Assembly: GCA_965267575.1 (NCBI GenBank)
Contig: OZ254086.1
Span: 1,088,001 to 1,152,000, forward strand
Direction of reading: 5' to 3'
Origin: Calditrichales bacterium
Lineage (GTDB): Bacteria > Calditrichota > Calditrichia > Calditrichales > J004
DNA: 64,000 nucleotides
Shown here in pieces: positions 4,064 to 8,636 of the stretch. How positions within the stretch are numbered: the first letter of the stretch is position 1; each line of letters starts with the position of its first letter. The notes below the pieces were generated by a model, which saw only the letters and a list, made by a program, of their open reading frames with translations, searched no databases and had not been told where the DNA came from. Made by a program: the position numbers and the translations under genes.

Positions 4064-4390
4064 ATGGTGTTTAAGCGCGATTGGATGAAAGCGGTATGGG
4101 CCATCGCCGGAATGATTCCGCCGGGCAAGGTGATGACCTATGGCTCGATATCGGCTTTGCTGCCCGGTGTTACGGCGCGTATGGTGGGCGCGGCCATGGC
4201 TGCCTGTCCGGAGGATGGGGACATTCCCTGGTGGCGGGTAATCAACAGCCAGGGCAAGATCAGCCCAAGGCCGTCCGGACACCAGCACCTGCAGCGCAAC
4301 CTGCTGGAGGAAGAAGGATTGATCTTTTCTGCCGGAGGCCGGGTTGGCCTGCAGCGCTACCTGTTCAGGCCGCCAGACACACCAGCGTAA
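4064..4390 (+). CDS. MGMT-family alkyltransferase-like protein (ATL/YbaZ type)
   Basis: IPPGKVMTYG, ARMVG, PWWRVIN. Trp replaces the active-site Cys, as in ATL proteins. Confidence 0.88.
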   Translation: MVFKRDWMKAVWAIAGMIPPGKVMTYGSISALLPGVTARMVGAAMAACPEDGDIPWWRVINSQGKISPRPSGHQHLQRNLLEEEGLIFSAGGRVGLQRYLFRPPDTPA

Positions 4391-5270
4391 AGACTATATA
4401 TTCAATAAAGAAAAGCTTCCAGACAAACTGGTAAAAGGCCGTCATTTCTTTAGGATTTTCGGCTTGCAAACTTTTGCCGCGCAGCCAGAACCACAGTGCC
4501 AGCAGCAGATGGGCGATCGCCATGCTCCAGGGTTCCACGCCCGGCAGACCCGCCACCGCAAAAACCGCCAATAAAAGATATCCGCCGATTATAATCGTTT
4601 TGCCCCAGCTGAAAACCCGCTCCGCGCCAACCCGCAACGACAACGATCCGATTGAAAAGCGCTTGTCTCCGCGCATATCCGGGATATCCTTGAACCAGGC
4701 GATAACAACGCTTTGGCCAAACATAAAAACGGTCAGCAAAATAATTTTTAAAGGCAGGCCCTGCGTTGTTCCGTAGATGTGCTGGAAATGCAAAAACAGA
4801 AAAATGTTGACCAGCAGGCCGCGCACAGCAAGGATGCAAAAGGCTGCCCAAAAATGGAATCGTTTTAGGCGCACCGGAGGCAGCGAGTAAAGCGTGCCCA
4901 GAAGCAGGCTGCCAAACACCGTAATCATCAACCAGGCGCTTTGCAGCAGTGCCGTAATGATGGAAACGGCCAGCGCGCTGAAAATGATGATCCAGCCGCC
5001 GCGAATGGTGATGGCACCCGAAGCCAGCGGCAACCCGGGTTTGTTTATTTTATCGATTTCCACATCCGAAAGCTGGTTTAGGCCAACGATATAAATGTTT
5101 GCCCCCCAGCAGGAAACCAACGCCAGCAATAGCCCGCTAATGGCTTGCAGCGGATTTGCTGTAAACTGCGTATGGTCCCAGGCAATCACAGCCAGCGCGC
5201 TGACGCTGAGCGTGGTGCCAATAATCGTATGGGGGCGCGAAAAGGCCCACAGGTGACGCAGAAAGGTCAT
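4365..5270 (-). CDS. Homogentisate phytyl/prenyltransferase (UbiA superfamily, VTE2/HPT-like)
   Basis: FSRPHTIIGT, NIYIVGLNQLSDVEIDKINKPGLPLASG, FKDIPDMRGDK and FYQFVWKLFFIEY closely match plant and cyanobacterial HPT motifs. Start at ATG 5270, overlapping the upstream stop (ATGA). Confidence 0.9.
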   Translation of the reverse strand: MTFLRHLWAFSRPHTIIGTTLSVSALAVIAWDHTQFTANPLQAISGLLLALVSCWGANIYIVGLNQLSDVEIDKINKPGLPLASGAITIRGGWIIIFSALAVSIITALLQSAWLMITVFGSLLLGTLYSLPPVRLKRFHFWAAFCILAVRGLLVNIFLFLHFQHIYGTTQGLPLKIILLTVFMFGQSVVIAWFKDIPDMRGDKRFSIGSLSLRVGAERVFSWGKTIIIGGYLLLAVFAVAGLPGVEPWSMAIAHLLLALWFWLRGKSLQAENPKEMTAFYQFVWKLFFIEYIVFTLVCLAA

Positions 5271-6106
5271 GGTTTTTGCCCGCTTAGTACGACAAATCGA
5301 ATCAATCCCTGCTTGTAGCCTTTTATCATGCGTCGCACTGTAAGCGCGGCGAACAGCGCTTCCCTGCCGGCGGCAAGCGTGGCAACGATGCTTTTGGGCT
5401 TGAGGATAATACGCCATAACTGCTTCCAGAAAGGGGCTACGAACTCTGTCCAGTCGGCGTGTTTCAGATTAACAAAACCGGCCCTTTCGGCAGCGGCGGC
5501 CAGCATGCTTCCGCTGACCCATCGTGGCAGGTGGAAATGACGGTTGATTTTCTCAAGCAGCTTTTTTTCATCGCCGCTCAGCGTATCGCTGGTTTCTTTA
5601 TGGCACCAGGTGGCGCAGGCAAAGTGTCCGCCGGGCTGAAGCAGGTTGAAAAAAGTGCTGAACAGCGCGTCCTTATCGGGAGCATGCTCTGCGCTTTCCA
5701 TGGACCAGATAAAATCGAAACTGTTGTCTGGAAGCGGTGGCCGGGTCATGTCGGCCCGGAGAAATCGGCATGACTTTTCTACCTTGTTCTGTCGCGCCAG
5801 CTGTCCGGCGCGCCGGGCCTGCCGGGGGCTGAGTGTTAACCCAATGGTTCGCACCGACGGCCATTTTTCTTTGAGATAAAAGCTGCTGCCGCCGATACCA
5901 CATCCGGCATCAAGAATATGCTTCGGGCTGTTTTCGATTCCGGCAAAGGTCAGCAACTCTTCGATCATGCGCACCTGTGCGAGGATGGGATCTTTGTGCT
6001 GCCCGTTATAATAACCGTGATGCATATGTATGCCCCACTGGCTCTCCCACAAGGCCGAGGAACGATCGTAAAAGCGGGCGATATTACTGTTTAGCGAAGA
6101 AGCCAT
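5267..6106 (-). CDS. Gamma-tocopherol methyltransferase-like SAM-dependent methyltransferase (VTE4-like)
   Basis: IARFYDRSSALWESQWGIHMHHGYY, ILDAGCGIGGS, FDFIWSMESAEHAPDK, ATWCHK. Confidence 0.85.
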   Translation of the reverse strand: MASSLNSNIARFYDRSSALWESQWGIHMHHGYYNGQHKDPILAQVRMIEELLTFAGIENSPKHILDAGCGIGGSSFYLKEKWPSVRTIGLTLSPRQARRAGQLARQNKVEKSCRFLRADMTRPPLPDNSFDFIWSMESAEHAPDKDALFSTFFNLLQPGGHFACATWCHKETSDTLSGDEKKLLEKINRHFHLPRWVSGSMLAAAAERAGFVNLKHADWTEFVAPFWKQLWRIILKPKSIVATLAAGREALFAALTVRRMIKGYKQGLIRFVVLSGQKP

Positions 6107-6972
6107 AGACCTGCCGAGATGAGCAAGATGATCAGTGCGGAGAGAAATACGATCTGCTTGCGGTTGAACAGCTTAACACCGCGCAGTTCGGGACGCGTGA
6201 AACGCGCCCACACAGAGTAAACTACTGCTGCCGGTATAAACAATCCACCAAAAAGCGAACCAATAAAGAAGCGCAACCAGCCGGAAACACCCAGCTTGCT
6301 TGGCATCTCAGCAGGCGCTTTGGGGACAGTGGTTGATGCCGGTTTTCGGCCGCTAAGGGCAATGCCATATTTCTCATGGCGTATCCAGGGCGGGGCCACA
6401 TATTTTTTCTCGATGGATTCAAAGCCGGCCTCGCGGAACCACTGCTCGTACTCGTCTTCGGCGGGGAACAGCATCCAGACGCGGGCCACAAAACGGGCCA
6501 GCTTTTGGCGCGGCTCCAGCGGACCTATCATCAGCGCGGTGCCACCGGGTTTTACTACGCGCAGGGATTCACGGATGCCACGGGCCGGGTCGGGCCAGTA
6601 TTCGATGCTGCCCGCGGAAACGTAGCAATCAAAGGTGTTATCGGGGAAGGGCAGGTTTTCAGCATCACCGCGGGTGAAAGCCACGTTTTTCAGTTGCGGC
6701 TTTTTGATTGCTTTAGACATCTGGTGCGGGCTCTGGTCCATCCCGAAAACGCGTGCCGCCGGCAGCTTTTCGACGACGCCGCCGGTGGTAAAACCGGTGC
6801 CACAGCCCACATCAACAATCCGGGCCTCATCGGCATTCGGCGGATTAAGCAGGCTCAGGGCCTGGCTACGCATCTCCTCCGTCCAGAAAAAGGGATTGAC
6901 GTAATTATCATAAAAGCGCGAAAGGAAGCTGTAAAACCAAAAGGCCGCTTTTTTGTTTTGCACGTATCGCAT
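6091..6972 (-). CDS. Plant-type MPBQ/MSBQ methyltransferase (VTE3-like)
   Basis: QNKKAAFWFYSFLSRFYD..VNP..WTEEMR, VDVGCGTGFTT, DQSPHQM, GDAENLPFP, YVSAGSIEYWPDP.RGIRE, VWMLFP.E.EY..WF, plus C-terminal hydrophobic segments. Confidence 0.88.
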   Translation of the reverse strand: MRYVQNKKAAFWFYSFLSRFYDNYVNPFFWTEEMRSQALSLLNPPNADEARIVDVGCGTGFTTGGVVEKLPAARVFGMDQSPHQMSKAIKKPQLKNVAFTRGDAENLPFPDNTFDCYVSAGSIEYWPDPARGIRESLRVVKPGGTALMIGPLEPRQKLARFVARVWMLFPAEDEYEQWFREAGFESIEKKYVAPPWIRHEKYGIALSGRKPASTTVPKAPAEMPSKLGVSGWLRFFIGSLFGGLFIPAAVVYSVWARFTRPELRGVKLFNRKQIVFLSALIILLISAGLWLLR

Positions 6973-7024
6973 GGGGGTCTACCTGCCAGTTTAAGAATGA
7001 TTGATCAGCTTAACGCATGCTTTA

Positions 7025-7162
7025 GGAACCCATCCCCAAATCCCTTCCCTAAATTTTAGGGAAGGGACTTTTTCCGGTTGTCGTTATTCTGGTATTTATC
7101 AACAAAACGCCGTTTTTCTCCCCTTCCATTGGAACAAGGGAAGGGGCCGGGGGATGGGTTCA
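7025..7162. repeat. Paired palindromic REP-like element between VTE1 and VTE3
   Basis: GAACCCATCCCC...TCCCTTCCCTAAATTTTAGGGAAGGGA and CCCCTTCC...GGAAGGGG...GGGGATGGGTTC. Outer inverted repeat enclosing two hairpins. Confidence 0.7.
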
Positions 7163-7169
7163 ATATTTC

Positions 7170-8153
7170 TCAAATCACTTCCAAACCTTTATAATCCCCA
7201 ACGATCTCCGCGCCGCCGTGGCTGCTTTTATCTTTGAGTACGAGCCGGTCGTTTTTCCACAGGTGGATGGAAATATATCCATTAAGACACTCATCAATCT
7301 CCCGCAACATGCCTTTTTCCGTGGGTGCTTTCAGGATCGCGCTCTTGCCCGTTTCGGCGCGGAGCTGTAAACGATAGTGCTCGTTGATCAATTCCATCTC
7401 GATGACAGGCGGGTTCGTCACAAGCCGTTGGATGCGCGATTTGTTGTAGGTGGTGAATTGGATCAGCCCGTCGTCGGGTGTAAGCAGTCCGGCAATAAAG
7501 CCGTTAAAGTCGCCGCGTATCCAGGGCACATGGGCCACGGAGACAAACAGGCTAAGCGGCTGCACGCTGAAGTGATTGGCCTGCAGCCAGATCCAGTTGC
7601 GCGGGAAGGCTTTGCCCCAGTCTTTCTCGATGTAGCCGCGGCCTTTTTCAAAGTTCAGGGTTTTGCCGTTTTCAACCAGTTCGCCGTCCACAACATGATC
7701 CATGCTGACCACACCGTGATAGCACTGCATAAAGGGCATCCAGGCATACCAGCCCATGCAGCCGGGTGAACGCACACTGGACGGCCAGCGCTTGTTGCCG
7801 GAAAAGGTAAGCGAACCGTTCATGCTCCAGTCATCATCCTGCAGGTCCAGGTAGATAAAACCTTCAGTGAAACGATTGGGTCCGATGCTGATATCCAGCG
7901 ACGTGCCGTAGGAGCGGAAGTCGCCCGCGTCAAAGCGGATATAGCGGCTTTTGTTTTTTGCACCATCCAGGATTTGGATAAACGCTTCGCTGTACTCTTC
8001 GGCTGGACTTTTATAAATACCGGGGATTATAGCCAGGCTGTGACCGTTTTGGGCATCGACGCATTTGTAATACCAACCTTCAAAAAAGGGGCCGCTCTCC
8101 TTTTTACCGTGGTAGCCTGCGGGCTTAAGGATACCTTTTATGTGTTGCAGCAT
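7170..8153 (-). CDS. Tocopherol cyclase family protein (VTE1-like)
   Basis: GYHG...FFEGWYYK, GCMGWYAWMPFMQCYHGVVSMDH, GRGYIEKDWGKAFPRNWIWLQAN. Confidence 0.87.
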   Translation of the reverse strand: MLQHIKGILKPAGYHGKKESGPFFEGWYYKCVDAQNGHSLAIIPGIYKSPAEEYSEAFIQILDGAKNKSRYIRFDAGDFRSYGTSLDISIGPNRFTEGFIYLDLQDDDWSMNGSLTFSGNKRWPSSVRSPGCMGWYAWMPFMQCYHGVVSMDHVVDGELVENGKTLNFEKGRGYIEKDWGKAFPRNWIWLQANHFSVQPLSLFVSVAHVPWIRGDFNGFIAGLLTPDDGLIQFTTYNKSRIQRLVTNPPVIEMELINEHYRLQLRAETGKSAILKAPTEKGMLREIDECLNGYISIHLWKNDRLVLKDKSSHGGAEIVGDYKGLEVI

Positions 8154-8183
8154 GGATGAAATATAGGGAAAAAATTCCGCAAT

Positions 8184-8636
8184 TTAGCCTGCGGGAATCT
8201 TGTTTACCAAAACCTTTTCTTTTGATATTTGAATATTAAACCGGTGGCCTTGTATCTCGAAATCGAACGAATGATCTTTCTGCCACTTAATGAATTTAAG
8301 TCCCGATAACTCTCCTTCAAGTGAAAACTCTTTTGCAAACTGCATCATGTCAAACTGCTTGATATATTCAATTTTTTTGCAGCATCCCTCTTGCCCATAA
8401 GTAACTTTCTCAAAATACATCGAGTCATAGATTTCGGAAGTAGTTACAATAACTCTAAATGCAAATGATGTAACTTCCTCCTTTGTTTGCATTTTGAGCC
8501 AAATAGGCTCGCTTTCGCTAAGAAATGTTATCCATGGATAAATATCAGGTTGTGAAACGTCTTTAGTGTCTATCCATATCGATTGAGAATAGCAATTTAT
8601 TGTTAATATAGTGATAAATAGAAAAATTCTTTTCAT
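8184..8636 (-). CDS. Hypothetical secreted protein (AT-rich)
   Basis: Signal-peptide-like N-terminus and a 150 aa ORF; no family recognised. Confidence 0.6.
   Translation of the reverse strand: MKRIFLFITILTINCYSQSIWIDTKDVSQPDIYPWITFLSESEPIWLKMQTKEEVTSFAFRVIVTTSEIYDSMYFEKVTYGQEGCCKKIEYIKQFDMMQFAKEFSLEGELSGLKFIKWQKDHSFDFEIQGHRFNIQISKEKVLVNKIPAG

Follow-up and report, generated by a model that had tools for sequence, protein, structure and literature searches.

Does a gene of a Calditrichales bacterium that resembles a plant vitamin E gene belong to the plant family, and what does it say about where plants obtained theirs? The gene lies between 6091 bp and 6972 bp on the minus strand of a 64,000 nucleotide stretch of contig OZ254086.1 (assembly GCA_965267575.1, positions 1,088,001 to 1,152,000), which we refer to as the window, and its predicted product has been designated P0001. 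The original prediction for this locus was that P0001 is the plant (VTE3) type of 2-methyl-6-phytylbenzoquinol (MPBQ) methyltransferase, that the gene is embedded in a tocopherol operon, and that it could represent either the donor lineage of plastid VTE3 or a transfer back from algae. We consider it probable, at about 80%, that this open reading frame (ORF) encodes a membrane-anchored, S-adenosylmethionine (SAM)-dependent C-methyltransferase of the VTE3 family within a tocochromanol-type cassette that has a patchy distribution across many bacterial phyla, and that it belongs to a bacterial clade which contains, or is sister to, the source of eukaryotic VTE3.

Identity of the VTE3-type protein

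Arabidopsis VTE3/APG1/IEP37 (At3g63410) is the plastid inner-envelope methyltransferase acting on MPBQ and 2-methyl-6-solanesylbenzoquinol (MSBQ). A BLASTP alignment of P0001 with Arabidopsis thaliana At3g63410 (P0187), which is named as VTE3 in a table of PMC12649381, revealed 122/256 identities (48%; E 6e-72), and a Trifolium VTE3-like protein showed 50% identity. Judged from the alignment, this likeness is far above chance and spans the entire mature plant protein. Plant VTE3 proteins were among the top matches of P0001 in the forward direction; in the reverse direction, At3g63410 searched against the genome of the bacterium scored 241.9 bits at the VTE3-type gene and 33.1 bits at the runner-up. 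The two proteins are thus reciprocal best hits, by which P0001 is assigned to the VTE3 (APG1/IEP37) family as the putative bacterial counterpart of the plant enzyme acting on MPBQ and MSBQ.

P0001 was collinear with VTE3 proteins over its full length, with 35 columns invariant across bacteria, plants and algae, including M34, R35, D79, G121, I123, Y125, P127, P129 and F169. The conserved blocks were an N-terminal helix (FWFY..LS..YD..NP..WT..MR), DQSP.Q, SAGSIEYWP.P and WMLFP. The plant VTE3 motifs and the hydrophobic C-terminus that had originally been noticed were all found: the N-terminal VTE3 motif at residues 7–35 (KKAAFWFYSFLSRFYDNYVNPFFWTEEMR), DQSPHQ at residues 79–84, YVSAGSIEYWPDPARGIRE at residues 117–135, VWMLFPAEDEYEQWF at residues 165–179, and two Kyte-Doolittle hydrophobic segments at approximately residues 233–255 and 271–293.

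An AlphaFold model of P0001, built from a 32-row alignment, was confident (predicted local distance difference test score 89.1; predicted template modelling score 0.86). It has a long N-terminal helix (residues 7–29), a Rossmann-type class I methyltransferase core and two long C-terminal helices (residues 230–259 and 271–292). Searches of the PDB by sequence and with Foldseek returned only generic class I methyltransferases and no solved VTE3; yeast Coq5 (4obw) was ranked 15th by Foldseek. P0001 therefore resembles the Arabidopsis enzyme in sequence (48% identity over 256 residues), in its motifs, N-terminal helix and class I core, in being anchored to the membrane at its C-terminus, and in having homologues of the pathway partners (below). 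It differs in having no transit peptide, in having two C-terminal helices where At3g63410 has a single hydrophobic segment (residues 302–327), in lacking a four-residue insertion, LIMG, and in being encoded in an operon.

Organisation of the gene cluster

Four consecutive genes share the same orientation on the minus strand (Table 1) and are predicted to encode, in order, a tocopherol-cyclase-like protein, the VTE3-type protein, a gamma-tocopherol methyltransferase (gamma-TMT) and a homogentisate phytyl/prenyl-transferase (HPT). This supports the description of the VTE3-type gene as part of an operon of the tocopherol type. The genes are adjacent and the last three overlap: the gamma-TMT gene starts (ATG at 6106 bp) 16 nucleotides before the VTE3-type gene ends, and the likely HPT start (ATG, 5270–5268 bp) overlaps the gamma-TMT stop codon as ATGA. 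The longest ORF for HPT reaches 5417 bp and its match to NF009525 begins at residue 45. The best named matches of the gamma-TMT were plant gamma-TMTs (41–43% identity) and cyanobacterial homologues (44–47%), and a quick tree placed it in the clade of gamma-TMTs, apart from four proteins of the Sll0418 type, with a Shimodaira-Hasegawa-like approximate likelihood ratio support of 100.

The genome (4.73 Mb, one contig, 98.2% complete) also encodes, away from the cluster, a 4-hydroxyphenylpyruvate dioxygenase (HPPD; 448 bits, cut-off 277) and four genes of the geranylgeranyl-reductase family above the cut-off. Two of these four (2184849–2185781 and 2188499–2189401) lie approximately 3 kb apart, and four is a large number for a bacterium. 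Searches of the genome for Photo_RC and PsaA/PsaB gave no match, with a Synechococcus control positive for both. On its gene content, the organism is a non-phototroph with a complete core gene set for tocochromanol synthesis.

Distribution in bacteria

The best matches of P0001 in a collection of 5.8 billion proteins were bacterial (47–57% identity), with labels that included Bacteroidota, Phaeodactylibacter, Lewinella, Chitinophagales and Rhodothermales; a VTE3-like protein of clover ranked eighth. Many of the bacterial homologues were already named 'MPBQ/MSBQ methyltransferase' by the automatic annotation of the Joint Genome Institute (JGI).

A scan of species-representative genomes, from which the best 80 loci were taken (E 3e-93 to 2e-73; locus and phylum counts are therefore lower bounds), showed that at least 80 loci encode close relatives, under at least eight phylum labels. 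These are the labels of the records, and those of metagenome-assembled genomes (MAGs) may include binning errors. The best 80 loci comprised 58 from Bacteroidota (Saprospiraceae, Lewinellaceae and Haliscomenobacteraceae), nine from Actinomycetota (Solirubrobacterales), six from Calditrichota, two from Nitrospirota, one each from Latescibacterota, Rhodothermota, Myxococcota and Cyanobacteriota, and one unlabelled. A full gamma-TMT homologue was directly downstream in 57 of these 80 and an HPT homologue was present in 56; both were found in 41 of the 63 that have at least 2.8 kb of downstream sequence. The VTE3-type gene is therefore not special to this organism and is a member of a widespread bacterial cassette (VTE3-type, gamma-TMT, HPT). 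The Solirubrobacterales loci lacked gamma-TMT in eight of nine cases among the best loci, and they may belong to a different prenylquinol pathway. In the Actinomycetota loci (L081–L093), the UbiA transferase that follows the VTE3-type gene was only 35–41% identical to the HPT of the window.

Close to the source genome the distribution was patchy. The VTE3-type gene was found in none of the 40 nearest relatives (0/9 of its own family, 0/29 other members of the order and 0/2 further members of the class; 28 of the 41 genomes searched, its own included, are at least 90% complete). A sample of the phylum had the gene in 13 of 86 genomes, namely its own and 12 of the 16 in one other family, whose loci are labelled Calditrichaceae/Calditrichota. 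HPT was above the cut-off in 18 of the 86: its own genome, 13 of the 16 in the VTE3-carrying family, and 4 of the 17 in a further family without the VTE3-type gene. The four HPTs of this further family scored 371–405 bits, and no VTE3-type gene was found in it at E <= 1e-30. Given this patchy spread among relatives, this genome either acquired the cluster laterally or is one of the few to have kept it while many others lost it.

Phylogenetic analysis

The maximum-likelihood phylogeny that had been proposed as a check was constructed in IQ-TREE (LG+C20+F+G4 with posterior mean site frequencies) from 59 rows. These were P0001, 35 ORFs from bacteria (the 58 Bacteroidota loci being represented by 14), 17 proteins that are eukaryotic or resemble eukaryotic ones (five from streptophytes, one each from Cyanidium, Picocystis, MMETSP and EukProt, and eight others) and an outgroup of six rows, in which short archaeal-like proteins were joined by a further group. 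Three proteins with very long branches in a first tree (P0259, P0347 and P0251) and five far outgroup rows (P0378, P0381, P0339, P0334 and P0315) were left out, and four high-GC representatives that appeared to be frameshifted (P0271, P0288, P0317 and P0345) were not used.

P0001 grouped with the plant and algal VTE3 proteins in a clade of 53 bacterial and eukaryotic rows, which was separated from the six outgroup rows with support of 100/98. The 17 eukaryotic rows formed one clade (100/100) with no bacterial sequence inside it. The window protein branched off directly after the outgroup root (92/80), and a grade of Calditrichota, Latescibacterota and Rhodothermota came next, so that the window protein lies at the basal end of the bacterial radiation, opposite the eukaryotes; two earlier quick trees agreed. 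The bacteria are thus not derived from within the sampled eukaryotes, and the tree does not single out the bacterial group closest to them. An alignment of displayed rows showed the LIMG insertion, directly after a conserved HG (HGLIMG), in all six eukaryotic rows filled at this point; it was absent in P0001, in 13 of 13 bacterial rows and in 6 of 6 outgroup rows. P0001 is therefore outside the eukaryotic (plastid) VTE3 subclade by both the insertion and the tree.

The nearest outgroup consisted of the short archaeal-like relatives (approximately 205–230 amino acids), which shared 41–50% identity over the catalytic core; unlike P0001, they have no C-terminal membrane helices, and they are set apart from the VTE3 clade at 100/98. 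Their archaeal label is that of the Atlas clusters (Archaea/Methanobacteriota) and not of the individual sequences in the tree. Cheng et al. in 2003 reportedly regarded two archaeal sequences as the sole VTE3-like proteins of prokaryotes, and an archaeal origin is, to our knowledge, the only published idea on where VTE3 came from.

Other relatives were also encountered. A divergent VTE3-like group (P0259, P0282, P0347 and P0348) starts with MPLEGLCSQTEA.WFYWGWS and had a branch of 2.9 in the first tree. Two eukaryote-like proteins, P0244 (680 amino acids; the three members of its cluster are equally long) and P0247 (750 amino acids; EukProt), consist of a VTE3-type domain with a gamma-TMT domain behind it, and a third, P0251 (1197 amino acids), has a VTE3-type domain, then a UbiA-type domain and then a polyprenyl-synthase-like part. 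These domains were assigned by reading the sequences of family representatives. In domain order these fusions agree with the bacterial cassette.

VTE3 and Sll0418 types in cyanobacteria

VTE3 and the cyanobacterial Sll0418 are reportedly non-orthologous, according to the 2003 work of Cheng et al. A cyanobacterial protein of the Sll0418 type (locus L123) aligned with P0001 at 41 bits (35% identity over approximately 136 residues), whereas the same query scored 346–752 bits against cyanobacterial orthologues, which rules out P0001 as a Sll0418-type orthologue. Together with the reciprocal best hit, this agrees with the assignment to the VTE3 and not the cyanobacterial type. The Synechocystis Sll0418 type, a paralogue of gamma-TMT, is presumed to carry out the same reaction. 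In the genome of the bacterium, the best match to the Sll0418 type (114.5 bits) was the gamma-TMT of the cluster, a paralogue cross-hit, and the genome is therefore without a Sll0418 orthologue; from these comparisons, the VTE3-type protein is its sole candidate for the MPBQ methylation step.

Of 301 genomes of the cyanobacterial phylum, non-photosynthetic classes included, four had a VTE3-type match at E <= 1e-30 (loci L107–L110, L114–L118 and L126). Three of these copies formed a sister branch to the Actinomycetota rows within one clade (100/98). Both the rarity of the gene and this placement fit the original statement that VTE3 is not of cyanobacterial origin.

Two of the carriers (G086 and G246) had an intact VTE3-type gene and genes for D1/D2, and are therefore phototrophs; in these draft genomes neither of two queries found a Sll0418-type match. 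The VTE3-type copy of a third (G093) had two in-frame stop codons, and this genome kept its Sll0418 (574 bits). The fourth (G338) had neither a reaction-centre match nor Sll0418. Three ordinary cyanobacteria (G090, G096 and G099) encoded gamma-TMT and Sll0418 without a VTE3-type gene. Plastoquinone synthesis needs this methylation step, and in the four carriers the two types were mutually exclusive. This suggests that Sll0418 can be replaced by the VTE3 type of bacteria, in what looks, from gene content, like non-orthologous displacement. The pattern and the pathway neighbours are indirect evidence that VTE3-type proteins such as P0001 may methylate MPBQ/MSBQ at C-3.

Proposed pathway and alternative interpretations

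From the family membership, gene order, distribution and tree described above we infer the substrate, the product and the direction of transfer as follows. The UbiA-type transferase (HPT) would join homogentisate, supplied via HPPD, to a C20 prenyl diphosphate, giving 2-methyl-6-prenyl-1,4-benzoquinol. The VTE3-type enzyme would add the C-3 methyl group to give the 2,3-dimethyl form, the cyclase-like protein would close the chromanol ring, and gamma-TMT would add the last methyl group, yielding an antioxidant like alpha-tocopherol or a tocotrienol in a non-phototrophic bacterium. The bacterial VTE3 clade, and not the cyanobacteria, would contain or be sister to the source lineage of eukaryotic VTE3.

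Several points weigh against this interpretation. The weakest part of the scheme is ring closure, on which a tocochromanol product depends; the cyclase-like protein matched only positions 142–335 of the PF14249 profile, its C-terminal half, and shared 22% identity with a true cyanobacterial cyclase. The prenyl donor may be phytyl, geranylgeranyl or another. The Nitrospira and Myxococcaceae labels may be binning errors in MAGs, and the replacement pattern in cyanobacteria rests on four draft genomes and three controls. In the tree, the eukaryotes were in a 28-row group with the Actinomycetota and cyanobacteria and a Myxococcota/Nitrospirota pair at a support of 89/89, which is not decisive. Two constrained topologies were compared by the approximately unbiased (AU) test: one uniting the window protein with the eukaryotes (log-likelihood difference 17.0, p 0.19) and one making all bacteria monophyletic (log-likelihood difference 6.1, p 0.27). 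Neither was rejected, and the tree therefore does not name the donor lineage.

The first alternative retains a true VTE3-family enzyme and gives the cassette a product other than vitamin E, for instance a plastoquinone-like dimethyl-prenyl-benzoquinone electron carrier or a new chromanol whose side chain differs, with the cyclase-like protein catalysing a different reaction. The divergence of the cyclase-like protein is in its favour, as is the fact that only 9 of the best 80 loci, mainly those of Calditrichota and Latescibacterota, include a cyclase homologue scoring 150 bits or more, and so is the pairing, in eight of the nine Actinomycetota loci, of the VTE3-type gene with a UbiA transferase in the absence of gamma-TMT. 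Plant VTE3, as described in PMC13084219, also methylates MSBQ, which yields plastoquinol. We nonetheless regard this alternative as rather unlikely, as the window has the four core tocopherol genes side by side, the gamma-TMT clusters with genuine tocopherol methyltransferases, and the genomes of Phaeodactylibacter and Solirubrobacter hold a PF14249 match above the cut-off, either elsewhere or nearby. The cyclase-like protein has also retained the motifs FFEGWYY, YIEKDWG followed by FP..W.W, and PTEKGM, of which the middle ones (YIEKDWG..FP..W.W) are proposed to be catalytic in PMC4963081.

That the bacterial VTE3-type genes, P0001 included, were transferred back from algae or plants is very improbable. 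The identity to plant proteins is high (48–50%), and a tree with monophyletic bacteria, which the AU test leaves standing, would allow an ancient transfer from a stem eukaryote to a bacterium. Against this, the eukaryotes form a single clade free of bacteria, the next relatives are prokaryotic and the bacterial clade has at least eight phylum labels with deep branches. The LIMG insertion of the eukaryotes is absent from the displayed bacterial and outgroup rows alike, and a recent transfer back from algae, the second of the two origins first put forward, is therefore not supported.

Equally doubtful is a donor role for the lineage of this organism itself. The original proposal of a donor lineage survives only in that a clade of the window protein and the eukaryotes was not rejected by the AU test; the maximum-likelihood tree parts the two, as P0001 branches off first, far from the eukaryotes, and the gene was not found in the 40 nearest relatives, those of its own family included, so that in this genome it was probably acquired laterally.

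Least credible of all is a generic menaquinone or ubiquinone C-methyltransferase of the UbiE/MenG type with a superficial likeness to VTE3: although Pfam Ubie_methyltran matched P0001 (E 5.5e-15), TIGR01934 (MenG/UbiE) was the best NCBIfam model and JGI calls the short archaeal-like relatives demethylmenaquinone methyltransferases, the TIGR01934 score of 68.9 bits was below the cut-off of 158.35, every UbiE/MenG equivalog model was far below its cut-off, P0001 is the reciprocal best hit of VTE3 and within its clade, and the gene sits between those for the cyclase-like protein and for gamma-TMT and HPT, not among men or ubi genes. The clustering with generic UbiE/MenG that would have spoken against the original prediction was accordingly not seen. 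Pfam reported only generic class I SAM-methyltransferase domains in P0001, and its score against NF052510 (MpqE, methyl-plastoquinone methyltransferase) was 37.3 bits (cut-off 335). UbiE, MenG and Coq5 share the superfamily and fold of P0001 and also C-methylate a prenylated quinol ring; P0001 differs from them in being under every curated cut-off and in its pathway context.

Other features of the window

A perfect 12 bp inverted repeat (7041–7067 bp; TCCCTTCCCTAA.. ..TTAGGGAAGGGA) is present in the spacer between the cyclase-like and VTE3-type genes and could be an internal terminator, an attenuator or a processing site. The hairpin upstream of the cluster is the probable upstream boundary of the operon; in the consensus scan for promoters and terminators the number of sites was not above that of shuffled controls. 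An ORF of 150 amino acids (8184–8636 bp, minus strand) adjoins the cluster upstream, had no Pfam or NCBIfam match and lies in a low-GC stretch (38.6%, compared with approximately 52–55% in the operon). Further along the window, 13,327–15,465 bp and 17,590–21,102 bp (minus strand) encode large BNR/sortilin-type repeat proteins with type IX secretion C-terminal sorting domains, which fits a bacterium of the Fibrobacterota-Chlorobiota-Bacteroidota group.

Table 1. Coordinates of the predicted features of the cluster in the window
Feature	Position (bp)	Strand	Details
Homogentisate phytyl/prenyl-transferase (HPT, UbiA family), predicted	4365..5270	-	NF009525 359.7 bits (cut-off 226); PF01040
Gamma-tocopherol methyltransferase (VTE4/Slr0089 type), predicted	5267..6106	-	279 aa
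VTE3-type (plant-type) prenyl-benzoquinol C-methyltransferase, predicted	6091..6972	-	293 aa (P0001); lid helix, SAM core, two membrane helices
Spacer between cyclase-like and VTE3-type genes	6973..7169		197 nt; holds 12-bp inverted repeat
Tocopherol-cyclase-like protein, first gene of cluster	7170..8153	-	327 aa; PF14249 E 9.3e-28; divergent family member
Terminator-like hairpin after upstream unrelated ORF	8177..8194	-	consensus scan only

Significance

Reviews still describe vitamin E synthesis as exclusive to photosynthetic organisms (abstract of PMC5745509), and the word 'bacteria' was not found in a 2026 review of the field (PMC13084219). Literature searches that covered main texts brought up no paper describing bacterial VTE3, nor one about tocopherol clusters of Saprospiraceae, Calditrichota or Solirubrobacterales; such papers may exist. 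The VTE3 family and the automatic JGI names were already known, and the interest of the locus is in the common bacterial cassette, the derived eukaryotic clade beside or within the bacterial one, and the apparent replacement of Sll0418 in a few cyanobacteria.

We tentatively propose, as a scenario that may well prove wrong, that plastid VTE3 came from non-cyanobacterial, non-photosynthetic bacteria that already used a VTE3-gamma-TMT-HPT tocochromanol cassette, that heterotrophs of many phyla make antioxidants of the vitamin E type, that the import displaced Sll0418, as still appears to happen in a few present-day cyanobacteria, and that the operon order survives in the VTE3-VTE4 fusions of some algae. 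If true, plants would owe a share of their vitamin E and plastoquinone pathway to a bacterial import. The bacterial clade offers a concrete sister group with which the origin of plastid VTE3 could be dated and rooted. Cultured, tractable carriers such as Phaeodactylibacter and Neolewinella would allow bacterial tocochromanol synthesis to be tested, and the compact bacterial operons could serve the microbial production of vitamin E. The plant-type enzyme is common in bacterial cassettes with the rest of the core pathway, and this bears on where plants got VTE3.

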